Below, piece after piece: positions 9,951 to 56,192 of a DNA stretch of 64,000 nucleotides. Made by a program: the position numbers and the translations under genes. Under the pieces are notes generated by a model. The model worked only from the letters and a program-made list of their open reading frames with translations. It was not told the origin of the DNA and made no database searches. This stretch comes from a virus: positions 64,001 to 128,000 of the IMG/VR virus record IMGVR_UViG_3300009514_000374, one strand, 5' to 3'. Each line of letters opens with the position of its first letter. Positions within the stretch are counted from its first letter, which is position 1.

Positions 9951-10259
9951 ATGCCGTCGAAGCCCTCAGAACGCCGCGTGATCATGGCGAAAAAGGTTGC
10001 CGCCGATTGGCTGGCTAACAACGCCTCGGCCGAATACCGTTTCCGTGTCTACCACAACGCGGACGCGGGGGTATTCGTGAACCTGCTTCGGGGCTTCCGT
10101 GACAACCGGGTAAAGCTCGCGGGCGTAGATCCGATTCCTGACCTTGGGCTCAAGAACGAGGTCAGTGGCTTCACCATTTGGTCGTCGGACTGGTCGGCAC
10201 TCCAATCACTCAAGACCTTCTTGGAAAAGAGGGGCATGGATACGTCGTGGATTTGGTGA
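9951..10259 (+). CDS. hypothetical virion-associated protein (tag-B-like AKKVAADW)
   Basis: ORF directly after the late motif. Confidence 0.65.
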   Translation: MPSKPSERRVIMAKKVAADWLANNASAEYRFRVYHNADAGVFVNLLRGFRDNRVKLAGVDPIPDLGLKNEVSGFTIWSSDWSALQSLKTFLEKRGMDTSWIW

Positions 10260-10262
10260 CCG

Positions 10263-10691
10263 ATGGCCTTGACTCTGATCGAATCCGCGTTCACCTACCG
10301 CTCCGAATTTGGAGGGGAGATCTGGCAATTCACTGTCGTCAACAACCAGAACGCAACGCAAGGTATCCGCGAGATCATCGGACCCTTCGGGCTCGTCCGT
10401 GACACGCAGACGCAGATCCCCGGCTTCGTTCTTGACGACCAATCAACTGCCATCGGGCAGGTGGAGAATCTCTTGGCACAAACATCAGCGGTAAACGGCA
10501 TCCTGACCTTCGCGGGTGAAACGTCCAAGACAGTTACGTTCTCCACCCCCATGGTCAACACGAACTACAGGGTGATCCTCAGTGTCGGGGATTTCGTGCC
10601 CTTCCGAATCCAATTCAAGAGCCTCACGCAGTTTGTGGTCGAGGCGGGCATCACCTTCACCGGCACAGTCGGCTTCGACGTGTTCGTATAG
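10263..10691 (+). CDS. putative structural protein
   Basis: Beta-rich; its C-terminus (TVTFSTPMVNTNYRVILS) resembles the C-terminus of 11456..13108. Confidence 0.6.
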   Translation: MALTLIESAFTYRSEFGGEIWQFTVVNNQNATQGIREIIGPFGLVRDTQTQIPGFVLDDQSTAIGQVENLLAQTSAVNGILTFAGETSKTVTFSTPMVNTNYRVILSVGDFVPFRIQFKSLTQFVVEAGITFTGTVGFDVFV

Positions 10692-10699
10692 GAGACACC

Positions 10700-11446
10700 A
10701 TGAGCCTACGCAACGATTTGATCCGACTCGCCCACGTTGACCCCGAGATCCGTGAGGCCGTCATGCCCATGCTCAGCAAGCAGGCTTTCGACACCGACCA
10801 GGAGCGGCTGCTCGACGCGATCGTTCTAGCTGCGGAGAACGAGGGCCGGTTCTACGACAAACGCGATGCCAAGGGGGCGGTGGACGCCGCGTGGAAAACC
10901 CATCGCAAGGCGACCATCGAAGATTTCGACCACGATTTCAACGCGATCAAAAAAGAGGCCATCAAACAGGTCCGTAAATCGTGGGGGCGTAAGCCCAAGA
11001 AGGCCACTCTCCATTCCAAGCTCGTCCGCCTTGCCCACGCGCAGCCCGAGCTACGCGACGTTCTGATGCCACTGCTCGTTGCGCCGACTCTCACGTTCGG
11101 CAAGGCTGCGGCGGAGCAACGGCCACGCCCCTACGCGGACGAGGATTCGGTGGTTGAGCGGTTGCACGCGGAGCTTTACAAGCTCGCAGAGCAACATCGC
11201 CTTGGTAACGGCCGAGCCCCGGATGGCACGGGAGCCCTGGAGTACCAGATCCGGTTCCTGCGAGCGTCTTCGCACCGTTCGCTTCCCTGGATCTACGACC
11301 ACATTATCCACACGGCCAACTCTGCGATGGCGCAGTCCCCTGTGTTGGAGCCGGTCGCCAAAAAGGTGATCAAAGAAGCCGAAGCTCGGGCGAAGGAATG
11401 GGCCGAGCGCGACCTCGCCCGCCGAACAAAGCGGACGCACGCATAG
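10700..11446 (+). CDS. putative internal head protein with two tag-A copies
   Basis: LRNDLIRLAHVDPEIR..KQA and LHSKLVRLAHAQPELR..KAA. Confidence 0.7.
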   Translation: MSLRNDLIRLAHVDPEIREAVMPMLSKQAFDTDQERLLDAIVLAAENEGRFYDKRDAKGAVDAAWKTHRKATIEDFDHDFNAIKKEAIKQVRKSWGRKPKKATLHSKLVRLAHAQPELRDVLMPLLVAPTLTFGKAAAEQRPRPYADEDSVVERLHAELYKLAEQHRLGNGRAPDGTGALEYQIRFLRASSHRSLPWIYDHIIHTANSAMAQSPVLEPVAKKVIKEAEARAKEWAERDLARRTKRTHA

Positions 11447-11455
11447 AGGTAACAG

Positions 11456-13683: not shown

Positions 13684-13685
13684 CC

Positions 13686-14951
13686 GTGAACATCGGCAAT
13701 CCACTTAGCTGGTCCCTTGAGGGGATGAATGCCCGCAACTTGCGGCCGGGGGATCCTCGTATCTCGTGGATGTACTACGACGACGACAATTGGGAGTTTG
13801 AGGCGCACGCGGAACGAAACGAGCGCGAAGATCGTCGTCTGATCGGGTTCCACCTATTCGTGCGGCCAAAGGGTGCTGATCTTGACGAGCGGAAACGGAT
13901 CAAATTCGATCTCCCCAACGAGCGCACTGTGGCGCGTACCGCTGAACAGTGGCTTCGCCAACACGGGCGCACTGCTAAGGCGCCCAAGGTACCAAAGCCA
14001 ACCAAGAGGCTGACACCCAAGGCCCCTCCGAAAGCCAAGCCCGCCAAGGCGCCCAAGGCCCCGAAGCCCAAGAAGGCGCCTTCTCCCGTGCAAAAAGCTG
14101 TGCGCACGGTTCAAAAGGGCGTTCGGCAGTTTGAACGGGGGCGGTCTAAATCACCAGCGGCGAAGGGGATCCGCACCCTCACACAGCTTGGGGAGCGTGC
14201 GCACGGTTTGCTGATGCAGCACAAGGGAGACACGGATCTCTCTATAGGAAACCCCCGTACAGGAGCGCCAATGACGCAAATCGATCCATCTCGGCTCGCC
14301 GAACGCCATGAATGGCGGGAATTGGCGCGTGAAGCGGAGCCTTTGCTCTCCGAAGCCAAGGCGATTCTCAAGGCCGAGGGTCGAATCAAGGCCGCGAATC
14401 GGATCAAACTCGCTGGCGAGGTCATTTTCAAAAAGGATCGCGGAGGCGACAAGGACCAGTGGGCCTACGCCGACGTGGCCCCGTCCGAGCGCATGGTGCC
14501 CGGCGATTTCAATTTCTCGCCCAAGAACGCCAAGCCGCTCGCCAAAGTGCTTCGCGCGAGCCTGGCCGCGCTCGGGCATGTTCTGTCGGCGTACCACACC
14601 TTCGCCAAGATCAAGAGTGCGCGGGTAAGCCCTGACGGTAACCTCGGCGGCAAGGGCTACATCCAGAAAATCGCCGACATGCGGCGACAGTACATGAATG
14701 TCGTGGAAGCGTTGTCGGCTCTGACCGACACGATCTACGACGAGGTTCACGCCCCACATTGGGCTGCGGTTTCTCGCCAAGAGGACCCGCAGGACGCGGC
14801 TCAGGTGAAGGAGATGCTCGGCGACGCCGAGGAAATCCGTGAGGATCCCGAAGGGTGGGCCAAGGATCAGATCAAAGACGAATTCGGTGACGACCAAGGT
14901 GCAAAGAAAACTGCGTCCTTGGAAGCCGCCTATTGGGAAGGTGTCGTATGA
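13686..14951 (+). CDS. composite head-module protein with a probable internal in-frame start at 14271
   Basis: Lys/Pro/Ala linker; internal CTAT motif, AGGAG and ATG (MTQIDPSRLAERH). Confidence 0.65.
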   Translation: MNIGNPLSWSLEGMNARNLRPGDPRISWMYYDDDNWEFEAHAERNEREDRRLIGFHLFVRPKGADLDERKRIKFDLPNERTVARTAEQWLRQHGRTAKAPKVPKPTKRLTPKAPPKAKPAKAPKAPKPKKAPSPVQKAVRTVQKGVRQFERGRSKSPAAKGIRTLTQLGERAHGLLMQHKGDTDLSIGNPRTGAPMTQIDPSRLAERHEWRELAREAEPLLSEAKAILKAEGRIKAANRIKLAGEVIFKKDRGGDKDQWAYADVAPSERMVPGDFNFSPKNAKPLAKVLRASLAALGHVLSAYHTFAKIKSARVSPDGNLGGKGYIQKIADMRRQYMNVVEALSALTDTIYDEVHAPHWAAVSRQEDPQDAAQVKEMLGDAEEIREDPEGWAKDQIKDEFGDDQGAKKTASLEAAYWEGVV

Positions 14952-16897: not shown

Positions 16898-17227
16898 GTG
16901 TCTCTACGCAAGAAACTGATTCGACTCGCTCACCAGAAACCTGAGCTTCGCCCTCACTTGCTGCCGCTGCTCAAGACGGCGATGTACGGCAAGGCGTGGA
17001 TCACGAATTTCAACCGGGCCACGAACATGCTGTGGGTCGGCGTGCAGGGCTACGACGGCATGGTTCGGATGTCGATCAGTGGATCGGGCATGGTCACGTC
17101 GCATGGGCGCCATCCCTCACAGGTGTCTCACAAAGCGCACCAGATCGTTTCCAAGTTTCGGAATGAAGGATTCCCTCGCATTCCACCGCACGGCCACTGG
17201 CCGCCCGAGGTGAAGCCGGACAAATGA
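16898..17227 (+). CDS. small tag-A protein
   Basis: MSLRKKLIRLAHQKPELRPHLLPLLKTA. Confidence 0.75.
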   Translation: MSLRKKLIRLAHQKPELRPHLLPLLKTAMYGKAWITNFNRATNMLWVGVQGYDGMVRMSISGSGMVTSHGRHPSQVSHKAHQIVSKFRNEGFPRIPPHGHWPPEVKPDK

Positions 17228-19098: not shown

Positions 19099-19647
19099 AT
19101 GCTTCCGCCGTGGGTTCGACCTCCCGATGCTTCTTGGACGGAGAAGCAGGTAGCCAAGGCGATCCTTCGGCATCTCAGTCCCGATCTGCTGCACAAGGAT
19201 TGGGGGCCAGGCGGCAAGCACTACAAGCCAGGGCGGCACGAGCATTTCGGGTACTGCAACGTCGCCAGTCAAGCCTTCTACTGGCTGATGGGTGCCCGCG
19301 AGGCGGGCTACAAGGCCATGCGGGTGAAGCACGAGGGAGGCACCCATTGGTGGATCCAGTCTCCCAAAGGCAAGGTCTGGGATCTGACCAAAGAGCAATT
19401 CACGACCCCTGTGCCTTACGCCCAAGGGCGTGCGGCGGGGTTCCCCGGCCGAGGGTATTTCCCGACCCTCGCTGCCAAGAAACTGATTGAGAAGGCTCGG
19501 GCCGACCTGGAGAGACGAGGCAAAAAAGCTATGAAAGACCTACGCAAGAACCTGATCCGCCTCGCGCATTCCAAGCCCGAGCTTCGCGCTGATCTGCTTC
19601 CGTTGATCACGGCTGCCGACCCGACCAAATCAAAGATGGTGCGCTGA
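19099..19647 (+). CDS. hypothetical protein (transglutaminase-like Cys/His/Asp pattern) with a C-terminal tag A
   Basis: GYCNVASQA..THWW..WDLT; KKA-MKDLRKNLIRLAHSKPELRADLLPLITAA. Confidence 0.65.
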   Translation: MLPPWVRPPDASWTEKQVAKAILRHLSPDLLHKDWGPGGKHYKPGRHEHFGYCNVASQAFYWLMGAREAGYKAMRVKHEGGTHWWIQSPKGKVWDLTKEQFTTPVPYAQGRAAGFPGRGYFPTLAAKKLIEKARADLERRGKKAMKDLRKNLIRLAHSKPELRADLLPLITAADPTKSKMVR

Positions 19648-20343: not shown

Positions 20344-22380
20344 ATGGGCCTTGGGCTTGGGAACATTGTCCTCGATGAAGGGCGCGATGCTGACAGCACC
20401 GCCGAAATCGCGGACATTATCACCTTCATCGAATCGGATTGGGGACTCGGCCAAACGCTGTTCCCGGTTCAGAAGGTGATCCTCAAGGCCCACTACGGCA
20501 TCCCTTTGGACGACGTGCCCGAGGGTATGGACGAGGGGCAGCTTGAGCTACTGGAGCACCACAAGTTGCTCAAGCTCGCGCAGGTCGAGAACCCTCTCAT
20601 TGACCCTACGGCCAACGAGAAATACCTGATCCGCTACATCCTGCGGAAACACATCCACGTCACGGATTTCCGCAAGCATCCCATCCCTGACGTGGCCGAG
20701 TGGATGTCCGAAGCCGAGTACCTTCGCCATCTGTACGCGGAAGGTCGGTCGAACATCGCCGAGGTAATCGAGGGGCAGGAGCGCCGGGAGATGATCCTGA
20801 GCGTTGGCCGTCGCTCGGGTAAGACGACCATCTCAGCCTGCATCGCTGCCTACGAGACATACAAGCTGCTCTCCAAGGGCAACCCACAGCAGTTCTATGG
20901 TCTGCCGGATGGCAACACGATCCAGTTGATCTCGGTCGCTACGGACAAGGACCAGGCGGGTCTGCTCTACCGCGACGTTGCCAAGTATTTCGCGCAGTGT
21001 GAATTCTTCCGCACCTATCAAGCCAACGCCACGCAGTCCTTTGCTCGTTTCCAGACGCCCTCGGACATCGAGCGTCACGGCCGGTACGCGGACAATCCTA
21101 ACGCTTCGGCCGCCTCGATCAACGTCACCTTCCGGTCTTGTATCGCTAAGGGACTCCGTGGTGCTGGTAACATCGTGATCATTCTTGACGAGGTTGCCCA
21201 CTTTACGGACGGCGGGCAGTCCTCGGCCGACGAGGTGTACCAAGCGGTCAAGCCCTCGCTGGCTGCCTTCACTGAAAAGAACCCCTACAACAAGGCCGAG
21301 CCCATCGGACCCGTCGAAGGACGGATGATCCTGATCTCGTCGCCGCTTGGCCGTCAGGGCAAATTCTACGAGCAGTTCCAGATCGCCATGAGAGGCGGCA
21401 AGGCGTCGCAGACGATGCTCGCCATCGAGGCACCAACGTGGGAGGTCAACCCGACCATCCCGGCTGAGTTCTTTGAGTCGGAGTACGTGAAGGACACCAA
21501 CATGTTCTTTACGGAGTACGGCGGCAAGTTCTCCGACCGTACTCTCGGCTGGATCGAGGACGCCCGCGACCTGCTCAACTGCGTGGACCCCAACCTCAAG
21601 CCTCGGACCCGTGGCCTTCCCCGTGCGCCCTATTTCATCGGGCTCGACGTTGGCCTCGTGAACGACGGCACGGCGGTTGCCATCGGCCACATTGAGCAGG
21701 AGAAGATCGTTCTCGACTACATCGATCAGATCAAGGCGGGCGAGGGCGAGTACGCCAACTACGAGCGCCTGGAATTTGAGGACGTGTCAAAATGGATCCA
21801 CGACCTCTCGCGGAAATTCCTGATCGATGAAGGCATGTTCGACCAGTGGGCGGGTATTCCGTTGGAGCAGGCGTTGCTCAAGAAGGGCCTGAAACAGATC
21901 AAGGCCACGCACTTTACTCAGGTGCTCAACAGCCAGGTCTTTCGGAATTTCAAGGACATGCTGTTCGACAGCCGCCTCGTTCTGTACGACTACACGGACG
22001 AGCAACGCGAGAAGCTGCGTGACAAAGAGGGCAAGGCACCGGACCACATGCCCTACTTGACCGAGCTATTGACGCTCCAGGCTGACTACCGGAGCAAGTA
22101 CGTCGTGAACGTGTCCGCGCCGAACATCGCCGGGGCACACGACGACCTTTCCGACGCGCTTGTACGCATGGTTTGGCTCGCCAGCCAAAAGCTCTCCAAC
22201 CGGGCGTACATCGCTGGACGGGGCCGACAGACCGGGCCGAACCGGCATCGGATCTCGGCGGGCAAGCAGCGGAAACAGATCCTCGCCTCCAAGAAGGGGG
22301 GCAGCATGGAGCAGCGGCAGCTACGTCGTGTAGGCCGGCAAGGTTTCATGCCTGTTCGTGGTGGAAGGCTCAAGGGGTGA
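20344..22380 (+). CDS. terL: terminase large subunit
   Basis: Walker A GRRSGKTT, Walker B IILDE, ISSP coupling motif, RNase H-fold GLDVG and HDDLSDA. Confidence 0.93.
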   Translation: MGLGLGNIVLDEGRDADSTAEIADIITFIESDWGLGQTLFPVQKVILKAHYGIPLDDVPEGMDEGQLELLEHHKLLKLAQVENPLIDPTANEKYLIRYILRKHIHVTDFRKHPIPDVAEWMSEAEYLRHLYAEGRSNIAEVIEGQERREMILSVGRRSGKTTISACIAAYETYKLLSKGNPQQFYGLPDGNTIQLISVATDKDQAGLLYRDVAKYFAQCEFFRTYQANATQSFARFQTPSDIERHGRYADNPNASAASINVTFRSCIAKGLRGAGNIVIILDEVAHFTDGGQSSADEVYQAVKPSLAAFTEKNPYNKAEPIGPVEGRMILISSPLGRQGKFYEQFQIAMRGGKASQTMLAIEAPTWEVNPTIPAEFFESEYVKDTNMFFTEYGGKFSDRTLGWIEDARDLLNCVDPNLKPRTRGLPRAPYFIGLDVGLVNDGTAVAIGHIEQEKIVLDYIDQIKAGEGEYANYERLEFEDVSKWIHDLSRKFLIDEGMFDQWAGIPLEQALLKKGLKQIKATHFTQVLNSQVFRNFKDMLFDSRLVLYDYTDEQREKLRDKEGKAPDHMPYLTELLTLQADYRSKYVVNVSAPNIAGAHDDLSDALVRMVWLASQKLSNRAYIAGRGRQTGPNRHRISAGKQRKQILASKKGGSMEQRQLRRVGRQGFMPVRGGRLKG

Positions 22381-22642: not shown

Positions 22643-22987
22643 ATGCCGAAAGGACCGCAGACCGAGGAACGTGCTGAGCGTCAGGCGAGGGACCAGGAGA
22701 TCCGTCTTGCCGCGCAGGCACGGGAAAACATCGAGATGCACAAAGCGGCTGACGCGCATCTCGACGTGGCTGCGGCGGCGCTACGCAACGCCCTAAGATC
22801 GCTCCAGAACGTCCGTGTGGCGCGTCGTACTGCGGAAGGCCAGGTGCTCAAACGCAAGCTCAGGGCCGTTGAGCAGGCTGCTGCGGCTCTCAAGCCCATC
22901 GGAAGGGATGCTGGCCGGGTTCGGGCGACCGGGCCGGACTATTCCGACCCCGATTTGTCTATGGGAGGGCCAGGGGTGAATGGCTAA
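22643..22987 (+). CDS. hypothetical basic helical protein
   Basis: ORF overlapping the portal start. Confidence 0.6.
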   Translation: MPKGPQTEERAERQARDQEIRLAAQARENIEMHKAADAHLDVAAAALRNALRSLQNVRVARRTAEGQVLKRKLRAVEQAAAALKPIGRDAGRVRATGPDYSDPDLSMGGPGVNG

Positions 22988-24980
22988 GAAACGCCAAAAG
23001 CGGCGTCGAAAGACCGCTCCACGGCGCTATATCGCCGGATCGGGGGACATCCCCAAGAACGAGGACGCCCAAACGGTTGCCAGCGTGCCGGACAAGCATA
23101 AGCGGCCTCAGTTGTCGGTTGGCAAGCCGCAGCCGATCGTCCTTGGGTCGATGCGATCCAAGGTGGCGAATATCGGCGCAGGCGGATCGGGTTTCGGGGG
23201 CGGTGGGATCGGAGGACCCGGATCGGGTAACACGGGTGCTTTCGGATCCGGGCTTGGTTCGGTTGGCGGCTCGGCGATCGGAAGCGGCGGGAATTTCTAC
23301 TCGCCCGAGCTTTCGACCGATTTCCTTGAGCTACCGCAGAGCCTAGACGAGCAGCGTAACTACTTTCGGTTTTTCTACCGCGCTGACCCGTTCGTCGGGC
23401 AGGCGATGGACATTCACCGCGAGCTTCCGCTGTCGAAGATCCGGCTTGGTCGCCCCGAGGCCAAGGACAAGGATCTTGCTCAGCAGTCGCTCGATTTCTG
23501 CAAGCGGTGGACGAAGATCGTTGGGCTGCTCCAACGGCTGTCGGAAGGGCTGCACGAGTACAACGTCATTGGCGAAACGCACTGGTTCATCGAGGACGAC
23601 AACCCCGATATGCCGGAGGACGTTCGATACGAGATCAAGAACATTCTCCACGAGGATGGCAACTTGGAGGAGACCAAGGAGCTTTGGCCGGACGCGGACG
23701 AGCGCGCCTCCGCGTGGATGAAAAAGAACTACAAGGGGTGGACGCAGGTTCGCATCCTTCCGCCTGAGCAGATTCACATGGACTCGTTCCCGATGTCGGA
23801 CGAGATCCTGGTATCGCTCATTCCCGACTCCAAGACTAAGAGTGTGATCGAGCAGGCCGACCAGGGTGACCAGCGTGCGGTCAAGGTCATGGAGTCGATG
23901 CCGCCTGACATCGTGATGGCGGTGCGGCACGGCGAGAACGTCCCGCTCAATACGGACCCAGACGCAGGGTCGTTCTACTACTACATGGCGAACAAGGTGA
24001 GCCAGTACGAGCCGCGAGGGCACTCTCGGCTTGAACGGTGTATCCGTACCCTCGTCTACAAGGACAAGCTGCGCCAGGCGCAGACCTCCATCTCGTCGCG
24101 GCACATGACGCCTATCCGGCTCGTGTACGCCGAGAACATGAACGAAGCGGACACCGAGGCGCTGCGTGATCAGATCGACCTCGCGCTCCAAGACCCCGAC
24201 TACTCGATCGTCACCAACTTTCAGGTGACGTGGGAGGAAATGACGCCGCAAGGGCGTCTGCTGGAGCTTTCGTCCGAGTACGACCTGATCAACCGGGAGC
24301 TTTATGCGGGTCTTGGAGTGACAGAGAGCCTGCTCTCAGGTGAGTCGAGCTACAGCGGCGATCGGATCAACCTGGAGGTGATCAACGTCCGCTACATGCT
24401 CGTCCGTGAGTTCCTACAGGATTTCGTGGAGAAGAACCTGTTTGAGCCGATGTGTCGGCGCATGGGGTTCATCGAGACGGACGATTGGGGCAACGATGTC
24501 GTCGTTTGCCCGAAGCTCTCGTTCACGAGGCTGGCCCTCCGCGACAACCAGGACGTGTACGACGCCCTGTTCAACCTCTACCAGAAGGGCTCGTTGCCGA
24601 TTAGCGTGATCTACGACCTGCTCAACGTGGATGGGGAGGGTGCGACCGAGGAATTGCAACGCGATTTCGCCACGTTCAAGGACCCCACCTACAACGAGGT
24701 ACTGCGTGGCCTGTACTCGCAGGCGGGGACCAAGCTCGGCGACCAGTCGAATTTCGTGGAGAAGCAGGCCGAATACCTCGGACTGGACTACAAAGAGGAA
24801 GCCGAGGGGATGCAGCGGTTCGGATCGCAACAGGCGCCCTCGCAGCCCCAAGGTCAGCCCGCCGGGATGGACGTGTTGGCTTCTCTCGTGGCTGAGCGGA
24901 TCGCCGGCCAGGTCGCCGATTTGGTCGCCGACAAGATCGTGGAAAAGCTACAAAAGCGGTCTCCTGAGAGCACCGAGTAG
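22980..24980 (+). CDS. portal protein
   Basis: Follows TerL; FFYRADPFVGQAMD.H, YNVIGE, RGHSRLER, GLGV.ESLLSG portal-like pattern. Confidence 0.85.
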   Translation: MAKKRQKRRRKTAPRRYIAGSGDIPKNEDAQTVASVPDKHKRPQLSVGKPQPIVLGSMRSKVANIGAGGSGFGGGGIGGPGSGNTGAFGSGLGSVGGSAIGSGGNFYSPELSTDFLELPQSLDEQRNYFRFFYRADPFVGQAMDIHRELPLSKIRLGRPEAKDKDLAQQSLDFCKRWTKIVGLLQRLSEGLHEYNVIGETHWFIEDDNPDMPEDVRYEIKNILHEDGNLEETKELWPDADERASAWMKKNYKGWTQVRILPPEQIHMDSFPMSDEILVSLIPDSKTKSVIEQADQGDQRAVKVMESMPPDIVMAVRHGENVPLNTDPDAGSFYYYMANKVSQYEPRGHSRLERCIRTLVYKDKLRQAQTSISSRHMTPIRLVYAENMNEADTEALRDQIDLALQDPDYSIVTNFQVTWEEMTPQGRLLELSSEYDLINRELYAGLGVTESLLSGESSYSGDRINLEVINVRYMLVREFLQDFVEKNLFEPMCRRMGFIETDDWGNDVVVCPKLSFTRLALRDNQDVYDALFNLYQKGSLPISVIYDLLNVDGEGATEELQRDFATFKDPTYNEVLRGLYSQAGTKLGDQSNFVEKQAEYLGLDYKEEAEGMQRFGSQQAPSQPQGQPAGMDVLASLVAERIAGQVADLVADKIVEKLQKRSPESTE

Positions 24981-24996: not shown

Positions 24997-25022
24997 TATT
25001 CGGGCTATGGGCGTGCCTCTAG
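24997..25022 (+). promoter_or_regulatory. late-type promoter motif
   Basis: TAT TCGGG CTAT GGGCGTGCCTC TAG; implies a start at ATG 25031. Confidence 0.5.
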
Positions 25023-25030
25023 CGAAGGCT

Positions 25031-28000
25031 ATGGCCCACAAGCCCACAAAGGCGCGGACAGCGTACACCGTCGAACCCACTGAGGGTGGCGTTGTGATCT
25101 GGCCCGAGAATCGGATCGAGCAGGCGTTTATCGACACGTTTGCCGCTCGGGTTGCGGGTCAGAGGCTTGGCGTGGCGAAGGGTCACAATATCGACCTGTC
25201 CGAAGATCCAATTCACCCGGACGAGGACGACGAGGACGAGTGGAAGGTGGACGAGGAACCGATGTCCATGGGGCATTCGGAGCTTCCCGGCGCCGAGGGC
25301 CGGACGGCGCGGGACTGGACCGCGCCAGGCAGAATCCTCGGCTTTAAGATCCGGTACGACGCCGAAAATGTAATGAGCCACCATCCCATCGTGATGGCCT
25401 TCGACGGGGAGACGGAGATTGGTTTCGTTGAGTTGGTCATGCTCGATGACCCTCCCTCTCATTGCGAGGACGAGTGGACTGAGGTTAGGGACGAGTTGGA
25501 ACGACGGGGTGCCCTTGGTGTCTACACCTACGCGGTAGTGGAGTCCTGGCTGGCGGACGAGTATCACCACAACCGTATCGGGGTGGGGATGTACGAGGCG
25601 GCGATGGCTGCTCTGTCAGACCCCCAGGAGCCAGTCATCCTGGTTGCGAGTCGGTGCAGAGGCGGCCCTACGAGCCATCAAGCGAGTCGTGTGTGGGAGT
25701 CCATGGCGCGTCGCTACGTGTCCTCGGGACAGGTTGTTTCGTCCGTTCCCAAGGCCAAAGCTCGGGTGGCGAATGTGGCTCGCCGCTTCATGGCGAAGGC
25801 GACGGGCACCCGTGCCGGCGACGGCTCCAGCGTGGGGTTGTTCATCCGCCTGCCGAAGCACCTGGCGACGCAATTCCCTGGCCTCGGAGAGAACGACTCG
25901 TCTCCAAGCCACGTCACGTTTCTCTACATCGGGGATTTCAAGGACAAGGACGAGCAGGCCCGGTTGGTCGTCACTCTGCGCGACATCCTTCGACGCTGGT
26001 GGCCCAAGTGTAAGGCAAGCCTCGGTGACCTGGAGTATTTCGACCACCCCGACAAGAACCGCCGCGTCCCGCATGTGTCCGTCGATTTCGACAAGGATCT
26101 GTCGGGGTTCAAGCAGCGGGTCATGCAGGAGCTTCGGGACGAGGGCTTTGAGGTCGGTGACAAGTTCCCCGAGTTCAAGCCACACGTCACGCTCGCGTAC
26201 ATGCCAGGCATGGACGGGGAGTGGGACAAGCCCGTGCCAGAAGGCTCGTGGGATGTCACTGAGATGGAGATATGGGGGATGCCCCGCGTACACACGATTC
26301 CAATTGGCAAAGCGTCGAGTCAACGAGTGGCTTCTTTGTGGCTTGAGGGGAGCACCCACGCGAAATCGGTTGCTTTGATGCGGTTCCTGTCCCGATTGGC
26401 TCAGCGTCTCGGGGTTGCCCGTCACACCTACGTCGTTGGCGGGGCCATTCGGAATTTCCTGATCGAGCAACCGATCAAGGACATCGACGTAGTGATCGAC
26501 TCGGTTGCTGCGGGCAAGGATTCCGAGTGGTTTGCCGAGCAGGTTGCGCGTGCCATTCCGGCGCCAACAAACCTGACGACGAACCAGTACGGCGTTGCCA
26601 TCCTGACCGTGAAGGGGGATTGGGATCTGGACGGCGAAAGCCTCAAGGGCGAGGTGATCGAAATCGCCAACGCTCGCAAGGAGAGCTACGGCGGTGCGGA
26701 GGGTAAGGGCTACAAACCACACATGGTTGAGCCGACAACCATTGACGAGGATGTCTACCGGCGCGAATTCACGTTCAACTGCATGGGAGGGGATACTCTG
26801 ATTCCCACCAAGCGGGGTATCCTTCGCATTGATGAGATCGCGTCTCGTGAGAACGGGGACCGGCAAGATATTCATTTGACAGTGGCGGGACAGGACGGTC
26901 CTTCGGAGGCTGTGGGATGGCAGTACAGCGGGTACGCGCCGACTCTGCGGGTGACCTCCGAGTGGGGACACACCTTCACCTGCACCCACCACCACCCCGT
27001 TCTGGTTCTGCGGGGGCATGACCATGAGTGGGTTCAGGCAGATCAGCTTGCAGAGGGCGACCTGCTTTGCGTGCCCGTGCGGCAGGTGTCGAGGCGAGAC
27101 CCTCTCGCTTTGGATTTGCCTGACCCGGTGCAGCCCAAGAGGGGCAGGCTCAAGGGTGCTCGGAAGCCTGAGATAATGACGCCGGAGTTGGCGTTTTTGA
27201 TCGGGTGTGTGGTGGCAGAGGGTTCCAACACCCACAAGCGGGTGTCTTTCAGTAACTCCGACCCCAATCTCATTTCCCGCTACGCCGAGTGCTTCCACGC
27301 CACTTTTGGATTTCTCCCCTCCCGTAATAAGGTGGTGAGCAAAGGCTCTGTCCGTGTCCTACGGGGGGTGGAATTTGTCGCCAACCATGACGGCTACGAC
27401 ATTTACGCCGACAGTAAAGCAGTGGTGGGCTGGTTGGAAGACCTCGGCTTGTACTGCGGAGGCTCCAAGGACGGGAAATCCGCTTCCCATCACAAGGTTG
27501 TTCCGTGGTCGATCCTACAAGCGGACGCGCGTAGCCAGTGGGCGTTTCTTGCGGCTTATCTTGAAGGGGACGGATCTATCCGGCCGGATACCGGGCGCAT
27601 CACATACTGTTCGGCCTCCCCGAAAGTGCGTCAACAGTTGCAGGTGCTCCTGGGAGCGCACGGCATCTTGAGCAAGGTGAAGGATAGGTTTGTCTACCTT
27701 AGCGCCGTGGATTCGGCTCTCTTGTGGGAGAAGGTTCGCCCGTGGATGGTTACCAAGGGGTTCGACTACACGCGAGACAGCAAGTCCCGTAACCGTTACG
27801 GAATTCCCGCAGATCACATCCGGGGGTTTCTTGCGGGCCGTAAACAAGCTCGTTCCGTGTACGCCACGGACGAGGGCGGGCTCCGGTCCCTTCCAGACGC
27901 TCACGAGCCTGTCCGTAAGGTTCAGCGGCTTCTACACGACGCCTACGCTCGGGGAGATTTCGACGGGCTCCTGTCGAGTCTCAAGATCATTAGCGGAGAC

Positions 28001-39118: not shown

Positions 39119-41611
39119 ATGTCGGAACCGAGTGGCGAAACCGAAGCGAACAAGCCCTATGCCCTTCACGGGAAGCTGACGGTCGAGAAGCTGCGTGAGA
39201 TGTACGAGGTCGAGCTACTGACCGACCAAGAGATTGCCGACCACTACGGGGTTTCAGATGCCGCTGTGAGCGGCCGGAGGAAACGGGCAGGCATCGCTAC
39301 CATGTCGGCTCGGCAACGCCGTGAGCGGAAAGCAGGGCGCTCGGGACCGTTCCTAGACGACCTGACTCCGACCGAGCTTGCGGACCTCTATAGCCGCATG
39401 GGTGATCGGCAGATCGCCGCGACGTACGGGGTCAAGAAACCTGCGATCTCCAGGCTCCGAGACAAGTGGGGGATCGGAGCTATCTCCAAAGCCGAGCGTG
39501 CGACCTCCAGGGAGCCTCTGACTGACGAGCAAAAGGAGATCGTGATCGGGGTGATGCTTGGGGACGGGCACTTGCTTTCGCGTGGAGTGTTCAAGGTCAG
39601 TCATTCGCAGCACCAGTACGAATACCTGTGCCACGTCCACGCGGCGCTGTCCTCCATCGCCAAGCCACTCTACTACGACGAGAAGGAGATGGCCGAGTCG
39701 GGAGAGCTTTGCCCTGGCTTCGGGTTTCGCACGGTTCAACATTCCTGGCTCAAGGCGATGCGTCGCCTGTTCTATCCCGAGGGCGAGCGGGTGTTTCCGG
39801 CCTCGGTGCTGGATAACCTGACGGAGCGTTCGCTGGCCTACTGGTACTTTGACGACGGCTACGAGAGCGATGGGTTGCCTCGGTTCGCCCTCGGCAAAAT
39901 CTCACGTTCCGCAGCCGAGGATGTCGTACAGCGAATCGGGAGGCGCTTTGGGTTCAAGACCTACGTGGGGTCGCCGGTTCCGAATTGCCAGATCATGTCG
40001 ATGCGGGCTGTGTCGTCTGAGCGGTTTTTTCGGATAGTCGTGGATTTCGCGTCGCCGGATATGCTCTACAAGGTCCCTGAGCGGTTCTGGCCTGCGCACG
40101 CTCGGCCTACAGTGAAGGTCAGGACGGTTGACCCGATCCAGCTTCCCAAGGAACTTCGGGGGACGGACCCGAGCTTGGAGGATGGCCTGTTGGCGTTTTG
40201 GCGGAAGCAGGGGTTCCCCTACCACGTTGCTCGGCCTGAGCACCTTCGTATCCTGGCGAATCTGGAGGCGAACCAAGTGCTCCAGGGGGACTCGCTGAAA
40301 ATTCGGCATGTTGGGCAGTCGTCGTGCCAGGCTTTCATGCCGCACATTTGGGAGGCGCATAGCTTTGCGACACCGAGTCCCAAGGCACTGTTCGACAACG
40401 ACGACCGGCTGCGGGAGGTGATCCGGCGAGGGCTCGCTGCGGGCATCGTGTTCAGCGCGGCAGGAATGCGTCAGGCTTTGAGGCGCTACCGTCTTACGAG
40501 CGTCTACAATTTCCGCCCGGCCGTTGCGAAGGTCTTGGTCGATCGGTTCTGTCCGAGTGGGGGGACGGTTTTCGACCCGTGTGCGGGTTGGGGTGGCCGC
40601 ATGTTGGGCACGTTGTTGTCGAGGGCGAACGCTCGTTACGTCTGCTGCGAGCCTAGCTCCAAGACGGTACGGGGTCTGCACGAAATGAAGATGTGGGTCG
40701 AGGGGCATGTAGTCGGTGCTGCGGATCGGGTGACGATCAACCCCGTCCCTGCGGAAACCTTCGACCCTCCCGAGGCGGATATGGTGTTGACCTCGCCGCC
40801 GTATTGGAAGCGGGAGGTTTACGCGGACGAGGACACACAGTCGTCGGCTCGCTACTCGACCTACGAGGCATGGGTCGATTCGTTCCTGCGGCCCATGATC
40901 GCTCGGAGCATCGCTGCCTTGAAATCGGGGGGCTGGCTCGTCCTGAACGTGGACGATTTTGCGATCGGGGAGACTAAGTACCGCTTGGTTCAGGACGTGA
41001 AGGACATCGTAGCGGAGCACGGGCTCCGCGACCCTGACGAGTTTCGGTATGAGATGCCGTCCTTCACTACCGAGGACAACTACGAGCCGGTGCTGGCTTG
41101 GCCGAAAGGGTTGGGCGTCGAGACTGCTCATTCGGATCCGGTTGCAGTTGCGGTCGGACAGCCTGAGCAGAAGGTCACGGCTCGGACGCCGCTGGCGAAG
41201 ATCTGTATTCAGTGCCGGAGGCGGTTTGAGACTCTGCGCGCGGACACGAAATACTGCTCGGATGCGTGCGGCTCTCAGTACCGGAAGCAGAAGCGCGGCG
41301 GGAAGCCACGAAAGACTCACCGGACCATCCAGTGCAAGGCGTGCGAGAATTCGTTTGCGATTCCGTTGACCGGGGGAGTGCCCAAGCACTGTCCCTCGTG
41401 TGCGATCGACATCGCGGAGAATCGTGAGCTTGCGGCACGGACCAAGGCGTGTGCGTACCGCCACTGTGGGCGCAAATTCTTGGATACCTCGACCAAGAAC
41501 ATCGCCAAGTTCTGCCACGTCGAGCATCGACGGCGGGAGAAGCTGTTTCGGTCGGGAAGGGCGGCAGACCTGTCGCATTTCCGCAACCCGGACCCGGTGC
41601 TCGATCGGTAG
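39119..41611 (+). CDS. fusion of tandem HTH, LAGLIDADG endonuclease, amino-DNA methyltransferase and Zn fingers
   Basis: IVIGVMLGDG, LAYWYFDDG; FDPCAGWGG (motif I), TSPPY (motif IV); multiple CxxC. Confidence 0.85.
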   Translation: MSEPSGETEANKPYALHGKLTVEKLREMYEVELLTDQEIADHYGVSDAAVSGRRKRAGIATMSARQRRERKAGRSGPFLDDLTPTELADLYSRMGDRQIAATYGVKKPAISRLRDKWGIGAISKAERATSREPLTDEQKEIVIGVMLGDGHLLSRGVFKVSHSQHQYEYLCHVHAALSSIAKPLYYDEKEMAESGELCPGFGFRTVQHSWLKAMRRLFYPEGERVFPASVLDNLTERSLAYWYFDDGYESDGLPRFALGKISRSAAEDVVQRIGRRFGFKTYVGSPVPNCQIMSMRAVSSERFFRIVVDFASPDMLYKVPERFWPAHARPTVKVRTVDPIQLPKELRGTDPSLEDGLLAFWRKQGFPYHVARPEHLRILANLEANQVLQGDSLKIRHVGQSSCQAFMPHIWEAHSFATPSPKALFDNDDRLREVIRRGLAAGIVFSAAGMRQALRRYRLTSVYNFRPAVAKVLVDRFCPSGGTVFDPCAGWGGRMLGTLLSRANARYVCCEPSSKTVRGLHEMKMWVEGHVVGAADRVTINPVPAETFDPPEADMVLTSPPYWKREVYADEDTQSSARYSTYEAWVDSFLRPMIARSIAALKSGGWLVLNVDDFAIGETKYRLVQDVKDIVAEHGLRDPDEFRYEMPSFTTEDNYEPVLAWPKGLGVETAHSDPVAVAVGQPEQKVTARTPLAKICIQCRRRFETLRADTKYCSDACGSQYRKQKRGGKPRKTHRTIQCKACENSFAIPLTGGVPKHCPSCAIDIAENRELAARTKACAYRHCGRKFLDTSTKNIAKFCHVEHRRREKLFRSGRAADLSHFRNPDPVLDR

Positions 41612-50883: not shown

Positions 50884-50918
50884 ATCAGGCTATACGGGTC
50901 CACTGGTAGTGGACCCGT
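50881..50918 (+). promoter_or_regulatory. late-type motif with an 11-bp hairpin covering the start codon
   Basis: TAG ATCAGG CTAT; ACGGGTCCACT-GGT-AGTGGACCCGT. Confidence 0.6.
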
Positions 50919-51588: not shown

Positions 51589-51616
51589 TAGTTTCTCTAT
51601 GCCCAGACCCCGATAG
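51589..51616 (+). promoter_or_regulatory. late-type promoter motif
   Basis: TAG TTTCT CTAT GCCCAGACCCCGA TAG. Confidence 0.6.
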
Positions 51617-51625
51617 GAGCCGCCG

Positions 51626-51997
51626 ATGTCCCTACGCAAGAAGCTGATCCGACTCGCCTACGAGAAGCCCGAGCTTCGATCCGATCTGATTCCGCTGATC
51701 AAGGTCGCTGCTCGTGTCGGCGACTCCACTTGGCGATCGATGCTCAAGGATCTGGAACGAGGCAAGCCGGGCAACTGGAGCTTCGACGGCCGTGGGCTTC
51801 GGGAGTTGGAGAACTGGATCGTGGAGCAAGGTGGCAAGGCAATTTCGCCTTCGTCACGTTTCTCCGAAGGCGACCAGATCAACTACACCCTGAACGGGAT
51901 CAGCCTTGAGGGTACCTCGGGAAATTTCATGGGTCCGTTCACGCAGGTTCAGGCGCAGCGCGGCATGTGGCGCGGCACTCCGTATCTCGGTGATTAA
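51626..51997 (+). CDS. small tag-A protein
   Basis: MSLRKKLIRLAYEKPELRSDLIPLIKVA. Confidence 0.75.
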   Translation: MSLRKKLIRLAYEKPELRSDLIPLIKVAARVGDSTWRSMLKDLERGKPGNWSFDGRGLRELENWIVEQGGKAISPSSRFSEGDQINYTLNGISLEGTSGNFMGPFTQVQAQRGMWRGTPYLGD

Positions 51998-52743: not shown

Positions 52744-52790
52744 TCTGCCGAAAGCGTGCGCCGCCACACGATCCAATTCACAATTGGATC

Positions 52791-53333: not shown

Positions 53334-53342
53334 AGTGTCCGC

Positions 53343-54307: not shown

Positions 54308-54332
54308 AGGGCCTATAGGGAGGCCACGGTAG
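54305..54332 (+). promoter_or_regulatory. late-type promoter motif
   Basis: TAG AGGGC CTAT AGGGAGGCCACGG TAG. Confidence 0.6.
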
Positions 54333-54370
54333 GAGTCCTGCGCTTTGCGCGGATCCCACGCCGAGGCCCC

Positions 54371-55009
54371 ATGCGCAAACAGATCGTCCCGTTTCTGCTG
54401 CTCGCGTTCGTGTTTCTGACTGGCTGTAAGGCCCTCAGTGCCCGTGTGCTGCCTCCGCCGACTTACGACGAGCAGTGCCAGCCGAGCGACAAGCGCTTCA
54501 TGGAGTGGGCCTTGGACACCCAAGACCTCGTTCCGATCGAGGAAATCTCGGCGGATCCAGAGGAATCGCTGGATCAGGTGATGGCTGAGCTTGATCGAGT
54601 TGGGCTCAAGATCGTGCCCAAGGGCGAGGTCGGGAACCCGCAGTGGGATGGCTTCACGACGACCTTCCCCGATTTCATCCTCGTCAGCGGAGATTGGGAA
54701 GGGAGGGGCGACGCGTCCAAGGCCGCTCTGCTTTGGCACGAGCTTGTCCACAAGGAGCAGTGGGACCGTCTCGGCCGCGAGGCGATGATCGCCCGGTACG
54801 CGACGGCTGCGGGCCGATGGTCCCTGGAGGTCGCGGCGTACCGGCAGTCGTTCCGTGTGCAACGGTTGTTCGGCATCCCCGAGGCTCAGATCCAAAGGAA
54901 CATGAAGGCGCGTGCCGAGTCTCTCTACGAAAAGTACCTGCTCGGCTCGTCCATGCCGGAGTGTACGCAGCAAACCTCGATCGACATTTGGATGCTGGAC
55001 GCCGCATGA
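54371..55009 (+). CDS. lipoprotein with a zincin HExxH motif
   Basis: LTG-C lipobox; WHELVH..Q...EVAAY. Confidence 0.75.
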   Translation: MRKQIVPFLLLAFVFLTGCKALSARVLPPPTYDEQCQPSDKRFMEWALDTQDLVPIEEISADPEESLDQVMAELDRVGLKIVPKGEVGNPQWDGFTTTFPDFILVSGDWEGRGDASKAALLWHELVHKEQWDRLGREAMIARYATAAGRWSLEVAAYRQSFRVQRLFGIPEAQIQRNMKARAESLYEKYLLGSSMPECTQQTSIDIWMLDAA

Positions 55010-55314
55010 AGCCTTCCGCGAAACGTATTGCTGCTCGATGGCCGGGCAAGGAAACCCCTGACCTGGAGGGCATGGGTGACGCTCTTGACGACCTGGCTGC
55101 CGACGAGCGAGAGATCGAGGTCATTGAAACGAACATCGCGGATCTCCGGCAAGCCAAGGTTGCATCGGGGAGGCGTCGTCTCGATCTGGTAAACACGGTC
55201 ACGACATCGCTGGTCGTGCTCATGGCGAACATGGGCGACGATCCTGCCTTGCGCTCGCGTTCACGGACCCTGCGCAACCAACTCAAACTGCTGCTCGGCG
55301 ATGTCCAAGACTGA
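55006..55314 (+). CDS. small tag-B protein
   Basis: MKPSAKRIAARW. Confidence 0.65.
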   Translation: MKPSAKRIAARWPGKETPDLEGMGDALDDLAADEREIEVIETNIADLRQAKVASGRRRLDLVNTVTTSLVVLMANMGDDPALRSRSRTLRNQLKLLLGDVQD

Positions 55315-55993
55315 GATCATCACGCTTGCGGGCCTGAAAGCTCGTTACCCGGAGAGCGGGCTGCGTCACTGGCTCTACGAATTTGCCGAGGACGAGATCG
55401 ACATCGGTTGGTGGCACGACATCGAGTTTGCTCCGACGCACAAGGTCGAATTCTTCTTGGCTGGTTCGCGCTCCGTTGCGTTCGTGGACTATGTGCTGTT
55501 GGAGTGCCCCGAGCACCACAACACGGATCGGCGAGTGGCGTACCTGCCTCAGAACCGAGGCGAGGATCCAGAATTTGCCCGCTTCCGTGCCTCGGCCTAC
55601 GCACGCAACCGGGACACGAACAAGTGGTGGCATCTCCAGAATCACGACCCGGAATGGGTGAAGGGTCGCGTCAAGGCGACACCTGTCACGTACATGCGTG
55701 AGCTTCCCGTTGAGCTTCGGCCCAACGAGGTTGTAGGCGGTTACGTGTATTTCATCCAAGGTGCGGTCGGAGGCCCGATCAAGATCGGGTGGTCGCAGGA
55801 CGTGGACAAGCGAGTGGCCGAGCTACAGACCGGGAACCCAGAACCTCTGAGCGTGATCAACATGATTCCGGGGACCAAAAACGACGAGCGGAGGCTTCAC
55901 GACCTGTTGGGGCACCTGCGCATTTCCGGGGAATGGTTCATGGATCATCCCGACGTTAGGAGATGGACCCGTGAGATCCAATTCGCGTCCTGA
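55301..55993 (+). CDS. T5orf172/GIY-YIG-like domain protein
   Basis: VYFIQ..IKIGWS..KRV.ELQTGNP..E..LH....GEWF. Confidence 0.85.
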   Translation: MSKTEIITLAGLKARYPESGLRHWLYEFAEDEIDIGWWHDIEFAPTHKVEFFLAGSRSVAFVDYVLLECPEHHNTDRRVAYLPQNRGEDPEFARFRASAYARNRDTNKWWHLQNHDPEWVKGRVKATPVTYMRELPVELRPNEVVGGYVYFIQGAVGGPIKIGWSQDVDKRVAELQTGNPEPLSVINMIPGTKNDERRLHDLLGHLRISGEWFMDHPDVRRWTREIQFAS

Positions 55994-56192
55994 TCCAATT
56001 CGCGTCGCCCGCAGGTTCCTGGCTTCCCCGAAACCCTACGGCGTTGAGCCCTTGCGGACCCGCTACGACTACGGCGATAGGCTCAAGCCAGTGGGCGAGA
56101 ATTCCACCGGGCACTCCAAAGTGCCTGGCGACGAGGACGAGGACGGCGAGGACGGCGAGGACGAGGACGAGGACGAGAAATGGTCCCGTTAG
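55971..56192 (+). CDS. small tag-B peptide, possibly a remnant
   Basis: DPIRVARRFLAS, acidic tail. Confidence 0.45.
   Translation: MRSNSRPDPIRVARRFLASPKPYGVEPLRTRYDYGDRLKPVGENSTGHSKVPGDEDEDGEDGEDEDEDEKWSR
55975..56006. repeat. 15-bp direct repeat GATCCAATTCGCGTC
   Basis: Copies at 55975-55989 and 55992-56006. Confidence 0.9.

Follow-up and report, generated by a model that had tools for sequence, protein, structure and literature searches.

Tag B, a short peptide at the ends and domain joints of polyvalent-type phage proteins, is a candidate docking signal for the prohead

The uncultured phage contig IMGVR_UViG_3300009514_000374 (a single contig of 141,007 bp with 60% guanine plus cytosine, GC) encodes a short peptide motif, here called tag B, that recurs at the ends and the domain joints of otherwise unrelated proteins. 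The window analysed in this study is the stretch of 64,000 nucleotides covering bases 64001-128000 of the contig, and a genome coordinate is the window coordinate plus 64000. We found that the motif is real, strongly enriched, spread across the whole clade of relatives and selected at the protein level. Judging from the kinds of protein that carry it, from the gene context and by analogy, tag B may dock on the prohead and thereby load it with cargo of the polyvalent type, a function to which we give an even chance.

The original prediction had written the motif as (P)SxxR[VI]AxR[FWYH] and listed twelve peptides, each of which was found where it had been placed, in a coding frame of the plus strand. 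Enrichment over shuffled sequence, the check proposed with it, was clear: R[VIL]AxR[FWYH] was observed 10 times in the phage proteome against 0.50 +/- 0.73 in residue shuffles, and the looser R[VI]Axx[FWYH] 15 times against 3.3. To avoid circularity, a hidden Markov model (HMM) and a position-specific scoring matrix (PSSM) were built from the tags of relatives alone and then run on the phage genome. The HMM detected 11 genome sites of at least 4 bits (0 in the reversed and 0.5 in the shuffled sequence), and the PSSM 13 coding-frame sites of at least 12 bits, compared to 0.45 in the shuffled proteome. A 14th site, the C-terminal RVARRFLVKRK at genome position 138431, lies too near its stop codon for the PSSM scoring window. 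Among the twelve predicted peptides the PSSM scored six as strong (18-28 bits), three as moderate (11.5-13.3 bits), one as borderline (9.8 bits) and two below 9 bits. The sites are listed below with the position of the Arg codon to which the PSSM score refers; here and throughout, positions are those of the window unless marked as genome, and residues are numbered in amino acids (aa).

14280-14321, plus strand: IDPSRLAERHEWRE (DPSRLAERH), borderline tag B in the open reading frame (ORF) 13686-14951; Arg 14292, 9.8 bits
25760-25801, plus strand: RVANVARRFMAKAT, tag-B-like, pv1 aa ~252-265, joint of the N-domain and the 2H domain; Arg 25772, 11.5 bits
26312-26353, plus strand: KASSQRVASLWLEG, tag B, pv1 aa ~436-449, joint of the 2H and nucleotidyltransferase domains; Arg 26324, 22.7 bits
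28891-28932, plus strand: PSANRVASLHRAG, tag B, N-terminus of p364, directly before the SH3-like domain; Arg 28903, 20.5 bits
29119-29160, plus strand: TMEARVAHRYAFEH, tag B, p364 aa ~82-95, joint of the SH3-like domain and motif C; Arg 29131, 12.0 bits
29967-30008, plus strand: MSAARIAALHMAKA, tag B, N-terminus of pv2, directly before the topoisomerase IB (TopoIB) domain; Arg 29979, 22.9 bits
30984-31025, plus strand: LNYKRVARRFFARK, tag B, pv2 aa ~340-353, after the TopoIB domain and a low-complexity linker; Arg 30996, 23.9 bits
34249-34290, plus strand: SVLRVAEAFVKKSI, tag-B-like helix, p239, joint of the SH3-like domain and the Zn ribbon; Arg 34261, below 9 bits
50915-50956, plus strand: PSAKTVAARHMRRT, variant of tag B, near the N-terminus of p251; Arg 50927, 18.1 bits
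55012-55053, plus strand: PSAKRIAARWPGKE, tag B, N-terminus of the 102-aa p102b (55006-55314); Arg 55024, 28.4 bits, the top PSSM score of the genome
55989-56030, plus strand: PDPIRVARRFLASP, tag B, N-terminus of the 73-aa p73 (55971-56192); Arg 56001, 13.3 bits

Seven further good sites were detected outside the window, at genome positions 12166, 39146, 40386, 40856, 42631, 136165 and 138431. The consensus over about 12-16 residues reads [S/P/A]-x-x-R-[V/I/L]-A-x-[R/L]-[Y/F/W/H]-[L/M/V]-A, in which V is commoner than L or I, the residue at +3 is A or S in half of the cases, and R is commoner than L at +4. The (P)S prefix of the first description thus survives as a mere preference for Pro, Ser or Ala at -4 to -2, not as a fixed PS.

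The weakest of the predicted sites fared differently. AKKVAADW in p102a (9981-10022, plus strand; codon 9993) scored below 9 bits, has no Arg at 0 and +4, and is to be dropped as a tag. SVLRVAEAF in p239 (34261) also scored below 9 bits, but it belongs to a conserved variant, RVA[EQH]A[FY]VKK, present in all p239 orthologues examined (five aligned orthologues and the consensus of a 39-sequence alignment). For DPSRLAERH the shuffled proteome yields about one match of the same 9.8 bits; an ATG with a Shine-Dalgarno-like (SD-like) sequence at 14271 (genome 78271) would make this site N-terminal.

The N-terminal placement that had been claimed for the motif was observed as part of a bias to protein termini. 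Twelve of the 15 best sites lie at most 45 residues from the N-terminus or at most 20 from the C-terminus, where uniform placement predicts 3.9 of 15; a count of 12 never came up in 200,000 random placements. Judged from the candidate start codons, most N-terminal tags have their Arg at residue 5-11. In p364 the start codons at 28876 and 28885 (genome 92876 and 92885), both with an SD-like sequence, put the Arg at aa 7-10, and in pv2 the ATG at 29967 (genome 93967) has an SD-like sequence as well. The ATG of p102b is found at 55006 (genome 119006), and p73, a protein with an acidic tail, has a GTG with an SD-like sequence at 55971 (genome 119971). In p251, to which a Pfam scan assigned no family, a GTG at 50909 (genome 114909) would place the first motif residue at aa 7.

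The codons of tag B are scrambled: where two tags share an amino acid, the codon is identical in only 28% of the cases. Selection therefore acts on the peptide and not on a DNA repeat, and a repeat at the DNA level was ruled out as the cause of the motif.

To what extent relatives share the motif was followed in several sets of sequences. Among 27 IMG/VR loci with a portal homologue (55-80% identical, 42-67% GC), most contained 2-4 tags per 21-kb locus compared to about 0.05 expected, and a few short or divergent loci had none. The whole genome of a 288-kb relative (G003) contained 13 tags against 1.0 +/- 1.2 expected. In 119 TopoIB polyproteins from the protein database (169,284 residues) we counted 125 regular-expression matches against 0.95 and 131 PSSM matches against 1.0, counts that include orthologous sites. 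All fetched sequences together gave 325 distinct contexts, of which 53 are N-terminal and 19 C-terminal, the protein in the latter ending 4-12 residues past the aromatic residue. Tag B was also observed at joints within proteins of 1400-2800 residues and in tandem arrays with a 10-residue period, e.g. RVASRYLMAS-RVADRHLMKQ-RVASRWLRAE. Per 10,000 residues, the block downstream of the portal gene had 5.4 tags, the upstream side 1.6 and the surroundings of the capsid gene (up to 5 kb away) 0.64, with about 0.06 expected by chance. In Bacillus phage G (JN638751), the capsid protein of which is 39% identical, no strict match was detected (0.24 expected). We concluded that tag B is a property of the sub-clade whose capsid protein is near-invariant (see below); either the tag system is younger than the capsid family, or it was lost or replaced in phage G. 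Particle proteomics of phage G have been published (PMC12484599), and the use of this phage as an experimental anchor for tag B was dropped, since it lacks the tag.

The large ORFs had been proposed to be concatenated cassettes of tag plus domain, and this was borne out by relatives, in which the tags mark the points where the same domains are separated or joined. The protein pv1 consists of an N-domain without identified relationship, a 2H phosphoesterase and a nucleotidyltransferase of the CCA/poly(A) type. Its 2H domain (aa 262-464) is a stand-alone gene of 212 aa in the relative L004, which starts just past the position equivalent to the first pv1 tag and ends in a homologous tag, RVAARYLAEIRRLSE. 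Both domains at the predicted 2H/nucleotidyltransferase junction were confirmed by Pfam, and the two pv1 tags (aa 252-265 and 436-449) lie outside the Pfam matches 2H (299-400) and PolyA_pol (474-593), in agreement with the proposed position at domain boundaries. The GNAT label given to the N-domain could not be confirmed: Pfam gave no match up to E=5, and the domain was not similar to a relative annotated as GNAT. A decayed tag, AARVAGQRLG, is present at pv1 aa 46-55, where the closest relative has the canonical RVASRHLG (L001 and L002 are canonical). The pv1 nucleotidyltransferase is interrupted by a LAGLIDADG intein (26822-28153); in a 618-kb relative (L046) an intein-like insertion is found in the head protease instead.

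In p364 a unit of tag plus SH3-like domain (the 'GKYKN' domain) is fused to a C-domain unit, which contains a Gly-rich hydrophobic stretch and in relatives stands alone or behind a second peptide, tag A (see below). The unit of tag plus SH3-like domain occurs as many free proteins of 80-170 residues, often with a second tag at the C-terminus, and at the start of or within giant proteins. Tag B is optional before this domain, being present at 33 of 74 copies with constant spacing. The SH3-like domain of p364 (28927-29091) is basic and reads YFxVGDxxLFGKYKNKKGK...EPIPKGRKKNK...FKIW; 243 representatives were found at E<1e-10, often with tag B on one or both sides, and its fold is weakly similar to chromo, Tudor, PWWP and SH3 barrels. 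Motif C (29161-29247), with the consensus (F/E)HPSE(K/E)AR(K/Q)xYL(K/R)xHPxADPxxHxV, follows directly after tag B or tag A; it has four copies in the phage genome and is present in several relatives. No family covered tag B, tag A, motif C or the SH3-like domain in the Pfam scans.

The protein pv2 has the order tag B, TopoIB domain, decayed tag, linker, tag B, long helical region and C-domain, and its C-domain is a separate gene in four relatives. The decayed tag after the topoisomerase, SSLEAAWDHLATK, has a counterpart RVASAWL..ATK elsewhere. In many polyproteins RVAARYKxKK precedes the TopoIB domain, and of the 131 sites scored by the PSSM in the set of 119 TopoIB polyproteins, 26 have an 'NYK-RVA' junction. 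By alignment to PDB 2F4Q and 2H7F the catalytic Tyr of pv2 is Y247, and the second tag comes about 95 aa after the catalytic domain. The 'SLNY' sequence as catalytic Tyr, which would place the tag in the active site, was thereby ruled out, Y247 (RSQY) being about 95 residues upstream.

Such positions could suggest that tag B is just a favoured inter-domain or capping helix, spread by cassette recombination and without a binding function of its own. The domain-boundary position and the shuffling of cassettes among relatives fit this explanation, which we nevertheless consider highly improbable: six specific positions are conserved in the 325 unrelated contexts while the codons are scrambled, the tag is also found in tandem arrays and at the very ends of proteins, both N- and C-terminal, and it is optional before one and the same SH3-like domain. 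Decayed copies at places where relatives keep canonical ones point in addition to selection site by site and not to a structural need.

The mapping of domain boundaries by AlphaFold, which the original prediction had asked for, was done for p364 residues 1-110 and for p239. AlphaFold2 modelled the tags as flexible or low-confidence helices beside confident domains. In both proteins the SH3-like domain was predicted as a confident beta-barrel with a predicted local distance difference test (pLDDT) score above 90. The N-terminal tag of p364 appeared flexible and mostly coil (pLDDT 52-61), its second tag was modelled within a helix at 76-94, and the p239 site formed a helix at 105-117 (pLDDT 45-50) after a disordered linker. 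The p239 protein is universally conserved and consists of an SH3-like barrel, a disordered Gly/Pro linker, the tag-B-like helix and a zinc ribbon with four Cys; the database contains 82 homologues of it, and it has no Pfam family. The SH3-like 'GKYKN' domain itself was rejected as the receptor of the tag, as AlphaFold2 packed no tag on it and the 288-kb relative has 13 tags and no such domain.

Alternatively, the tag could be a nucleic-acid-binding or self-associating helix that tethers cargo to the packaged DNA or to inner-body proteins. Its Arg and aromatic residues, the Lys-rich stretches that often come next, the DNA and RNA enzymes that it flanks (TopoIB, 2H, nucleotidyltransferase), the tandem arrays and the frequent pairing with a basic SH3-like domain of weak chromo/Tudor/PWWP fold similarity would all suit such a tether. 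Against this, the invariant Val and Ala and a helix conserved round most of its circumference point to a protein groove and not to phosphate contacts, and the tag is also found on hydrolase, peptidase and ADP-ribosyltransferase domains. The 288-kb relative shows that the SH3-like domain is not a general partner, and the tag is left unpacked on that domain in the AlphaFold2 models. We regard a tether as quite improbable.

The gene context of the carriers was investigated by Pfam and phrog matches, which gave the following gene order for the head module of the window; nearly all genes of the window are on the plus strand.

20344-22380: large terminase
22980-24980, plus strand: portal protein (phrog_16240, E 1e-26); the cargo genes come next
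25007-28888, plus strand: pv1, polyvalent protein of 1293 aa with Pfam domains
28876-29970, plus strand: p364, with tag B, SH3-like domain, tag B, motif C and C-domain
29967-33935, plus strand: pv2, polyvalent protein of 1322 aa, Pfam Topoisom_I
33940-34500, plus strand: p239, small head-module protein
34501-35955, plus strand: head maturation protease (phrog_18299), with a conserved R-T-A↓S at aa 25-28 (↓, putative cut)
35977-37269, plus strand: acidic scaffold-like protein; K-x-A↓S sites are present, and its conserved C-terminal tail is unlike tag B
37465-38127: p220, between the scaffold-like gene and the capsid gene
38138-39010, plus strand: major capsid protein of the HK97 fold, 290 aa (phrog_2522, E 2e-49)

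The earlier description of the carriers as head-module proteins was too narrow, because only pv1, p364, pv2 and p239 belong to this module and the other carriers are scattered. Carriers in this genome include the 2H plus CCA/poly(A)-type nucleotidyltransferase protein, the TopoIB protein, an ART-PolyVal ADP-ribosyltransferase, DUF7129 and L5-gp82-like proteins and several small proteins without assigned function; the C-termini of an alpha/beta hydrolase and a C39-type peptidase gave loose-pattern matches that were not scored. In relatives TopoIB is fused to PAP2, LigT/2H, GNAT, RNA ligase, carbonic anhydrase, superoxide dismutase, ART-PolyVal, ParB and other domains. These unrelated enzymes make up the domain repertoire of polyvalent proteins. 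By pattern and PSSM scans no convincing tag B was detected in the portal, protease, scaffold and p220 proteins, in the annotated capsid and tail genes or in the annotated replication genes, where in the last group QRIADHF in a helicase was the only loose-pattern match (no Arg at +4, below 9 bits). An internal RVARVY of the capsid protein (aa 179) was treated as chance, as it scored below 9 bits and homologous capsid-like fragments in relatives lack the motif. Far from the head module, at genome 26,000-45,000 (loci L029 and L030), a 'cargo island' of about 20 kb encodes carriers of tag A and tag B, namely a ParB-like nuclease polyprotein, the alpha/beta hydrolase, the C39 peptidase and the DUF7129 and L5-gp82-like proteins.

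Effector-type enzymes as carriers would also be expected if the tag acted after injection, docking many effectors on a single conserved target in the host, for instance RNA polymerase, ribosome, nucleoid or membrane. N-terminal tags have no release site after them and would be kept on the mature protein, and some carriers lie outside the late-looking modules, both in line with a role in the host. On the other hand, the same consensus is found at 42-67% GC, presumably in different hosts, and would need a universally conserved receptor; the tag density is highest in the portal-to-protease block; the architecture is common to tag A and the scaffold tail, both beside sites of the head-protease type; and phage G has comparable effectors but no tag. 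Docking in the host is thus very unlikely in our view. A Tat (twin-arginine translocation) signal (S/T-R-R-x-F-L-K plus a hydrophobic region) was ruled out, since two Arg are not conserved (+3 is mostly A or S) and the spacing is RRFL instead of RRxFL; the C-terminal and internal copies speak further against it.

The motif had also been predicted to be a processing signal. As candidate code of the head protease, which is herpesvirus-like, we took the pattern [KR]-x-A↓[SAG]. It is found at seven sites in the scaffold, two of them K-T-A↓S just before the conserved C-terminal tail ...LWKTDPDVSSVFNG (37120-37269), once as a conserved R-T-A↓S at the protease N-terminus (34573-34584), and once as K-L-A↓A near the N-terminus of the capsid protein (aa 24-27; 38207-38218). 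The scaffold sites and tail resemble a herpesvirus-like maturation site followed by a capsid-binding tail. The processing claim proved the weaker one: tag B shares its core with the loose [KR]-x-A-[SAG], and cut-like sites lie upstream of a minority of the tags. Within 10 residues upstream they were found at 6 of 19 C-terminal and 42 of 228 internal tags against a background of 4.5%, counts in which the contexts are phylogenetically non-independent. On the downstream side of N-terminal tags, which adjoin a folded domain directly, no enrichment was detected (5 of 53, background 11%).

One explanation of these observations is that tag B is itself the recognition or cleavage site (R-V-A↓x) of the head protease, or a pseudo-substrate docking site for it, so that polyproteins would be cut there and cargo might ride in bound to the protease. 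The R-[VIL]-A-[A/S] core does fit the loose code seen in scaffold, protease and capsid protein, and the tags are at domain joints, where relatives split genes. However, the would-be P1' residue (+3) is A, S or G in only 52% of the 325 contexts and often R, T, E, F, D or L. P2 is always V, I or L and P3 always Arg, whereas the scaffold sites have Lys at P3 and a variable P2. The conserved residues at +4 (R/L), +5 (aromatic) and +6 (L/M), within a conserved stretch from +4 to +7, are not matched by anything at the sites of the scaffold, the protease and the capsid protein. Tandem arrays of 10 residues and tags about 5 residues from an N-terminus fit poorly as cut sites, and the tag is modelled as helical. 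By P1', P2 and +4 to +7, tag B did not group with the head-protease cleavage sites; its core formally fits the loose pattern, yet judged from these residues it appears to be a different object. A role as protease site is therefore unlikely.

The relation between anchor peptides and protease sites was clearer for tag A, a peptide of about 25 residues with a helix-turn-helix-like pattern, SLRxxLIRLAHxxPELRxxLLPLLK, that is placed at N-termini, C-termini and joints. Five copies were found in the window by self-BLAST:

16901-16975, plus strand: tag A, SLRKKLIRLAHQKPELRPHLLPLLK
10703-10777, 11006-11080, 19537-19614 and 51629-51703: the other copies of tag A

In a six-frame scan copies of tag A were detected in many relatives, showing it to be clade-wide. 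Its N-terminal copies start with M-[S/T]-L-R, and its carriers include the ParB-like-nuclease polyprotein. Tags A and B share the slot before motif C in paralogues, with tag A in g28184 and tag B in p364. Directly before six of the seven C-terminal tag A copies a protease-type site [KR]-x-[AG]↓[SA] is present. This suggests a grammar of anchors and release sites, like that of the scaffold tail behind its maturation site, which tag B follows only in part. The scaffold tail is not a tag B: ELASLW in G000 compared to RVASLW raised this possibility, which was rejected since the tails of about 18 relatives show a different motif, LSKLWESAPDVSKVF, and the resemblance is limited to a hydrophobic-x-x-L-W pattern.

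In the function that we favour, docking into the prohead, tag B, placed at either end or at a domain joint of a polyvalent-type accessory enzyme, would fold into a short helix upon binding a conserved component of the assembling prohead. Candidate partners are the hyperconserved major capsid protein, the scaffold or core, the protease and the portal. Bound in this way, the enzymes would enter the capsid and reach the host together with the DNA, and tandem or multiple copies could add avidity. The head-protease code [KR]-x-A↓S would be a separate element that, beside a minority of the tags, cuts cassettes apart or releases them. Binding, encapsidation and ejection of tagged cargo are all steps that we infer. 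Several results are in favour of docking: the enrichment in the phage genome, in the 288-kb relative, at the portal loci and in the TopoIB polyproteins; the selection on the peptide seen from the codon identity of 28%; and the independence of position (N-terminal, C-terminal and tandem), as expected of a docking motif. The unrelated carrier enzymes are typical of injected polyvalent proteins (PMC5512222), and the density of tags peaks after the portal with no convincing tag in annotated replication genes. Likewise in favour are the shared slot of tags A and B together with the protease-type sites before C-terminal tag A and the scaffold tail, the cut-like sites enriched upstream of C-terminal and internal tag B, and the low to moderate confidence of the modelled tags beside confident domains.

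Several points weigh against docking into the prohead. Some of the carrier genes are distant from the head module, at genome 12-45 kb, 114-120 kb and 136-138 kb. N-terminal tags enter a folded domain without a release site, unlike the signal of phage T4, which is cut off. The head protease has no tag B, thus at least one packaged protein uses another route. The tagged cargo amounts to more than 10,000 residues of distinct proteins, for which copy numbers would have to be low. Finally, the tags counted in the polyproteins are not all independent events.

The major capsid protein is 85-98% identical across relatives, compared to 57-80% for the portal, 44-75% for the protease and 35-63% for the scaffold. 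It is represented by more than 2000 database clusters, the top 120 of which are all at least 90% identical, on contigs from 141 kb to more than 600 kb; genomes that differ widely in size thus seem to share one almost unchanging capsid protein. This hyperconservation is a circumstantial pointer to the capsid protein as candidate receptor of the tag. A bolder version of docking, which seems to us somewhat unlikely, is a programmable loading as in encapsulins across this worldwide clade of large to huge phages, where tags A and B would dock dozens of swappable cassettes on the inner face of the capsid and the protease code would release them. The capsid protein would then be a hub for hundreds of tags, which would explain its 85-98% identity while portal, protease and scaffold drift to 35-80%.

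Encapsulin cargo-loading peptides and the encapsulation peptides of bacterial microcompartments are short, terminal (in microcompartments also interdomain) and flexibly linked, and they dock enzymes inside a shell, which in encapsulins has the HK97 fold. The capsid protein studied here has the HK97 fold as well, but the consensus of tag B differs, and the shells of encapsulins and microcompartments are not viral capsids. As to microcompartments, the positions of tag B fit; two tag sites are modelled as helical, the N-terminal p364 tag is mostly coil and many N-terminal tags have no linker. The C-terminal tail of herpesvirus and phage scaffolds, which binds the capsid and stands behind an (Ala↓Ser) maturation site, is similar in layout. 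The scaffold of this phage has K-T-A↓S before its tail, and C-terminal tags A and B often stand behind a similar site; the tail motif, however, is not tag B, and for tag B the upstream site is confined to the 6 of 19 C-terminal copies given above.

In phage T4 a short capsid targeting sequence (CTS) is the sole common feature of the diverse defence-related proteins IPI-III and Alt and directs them into the prohead (PMC3012670, PMC9958956). Tag B is alike in being a short peptide on otherwise unrelated proteins (325 contexts) with a head protease encoded nearby. The T4 signal is only N-terminal and is removed by gp21, whereas tag B is also C-terminal, internal and tandem and does not share the combination of N-terminal position and removal at an adjacent site; this comparison covers features of the two signals. 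In phage P1 an N-terminal packaging signal of 30 residues is carried by DarB, a very large multi-domain anti-defence protein that is packaged in the head and delivered with the DNA (PMC9024508). The DarB signal is single, specific for one protein and shown by experiment, while tag B is common to many proteins and its packaging role is predicted. By sequence, tag B appears to be a member of none of the T4 CTS, P1 DarB, encapsulin and microcompartment signals.

In kind of protein the carriers resemble the polyvalent proteins, multi-domain proteins encoded near the portal and thought to be packaged and injected, with a repertoire of 2H, ART-PolyVal, ParB-like nuclease, peptidase and nucleotidyltransferase domains (Iyer et al. 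2017, PMC5512222). Two carriers show this character clearly: pv1 (2H, nucleotidyltransferase and intein) and pv2 (TopoIB and further regions) combine at least two such parts in one polypeptide and come directly after the portal, in the packaging neighbourhood. The paper (PMC5512222) invokes fusions to MuF or portal proteins and zincin peptidases, and term searches of it returned no shared address peptide and no use of 'linker'. Pfam scans of the carriers, which covered part of the proteins of this genome, gave no MuF domain. Literature searches that included peptide strings found no description of tag B.

If tag B is an address label, the proteins carried and injected by a very large clade of uncultured phages could be read from sequence, whereas at present this takes virion proteomics. 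Combined with the near-invariant capsid protein, the tag would give a testable explanation of how polyvalent effectors without a MuF domain reach the virion. Capsid targeting would then extend from single N-terminal signals, as in T4 and P1, to a position-independent tag in multiple copies that joins exchangeable cassettes, and a tag so short and portable could in principle load foreign proteins into these capsids. Should it target a host structure or the protease instead, it would still be a new conserved interaction motif on hundreds of effector proteins.

The phage itself has no close relative by a DNA-level search of the phage collection. By protein the nearest record is an uncultured 485-kb phage, with a terminase 55% and a capsid protein 92% identical; Tunturiibacter phage Tunturi_5 and the capsid proteins of mycobacteriophage cluster C are far more distant protein relatives. 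A block for replication and nucleotide metabolism occupies genome ~45-72 kb and includes genes for a ribonucleotide reductase, a Dda-like helicase, a UvsX-like recombinase, an SbcC-like nuclease, a clamp and a clamp loader. Directly after the capsid gene, a protein of 830 aa (39119-41611) has matches to a LAGLIDADG/HNH-type nuclease and to a DNA methyltransferase.

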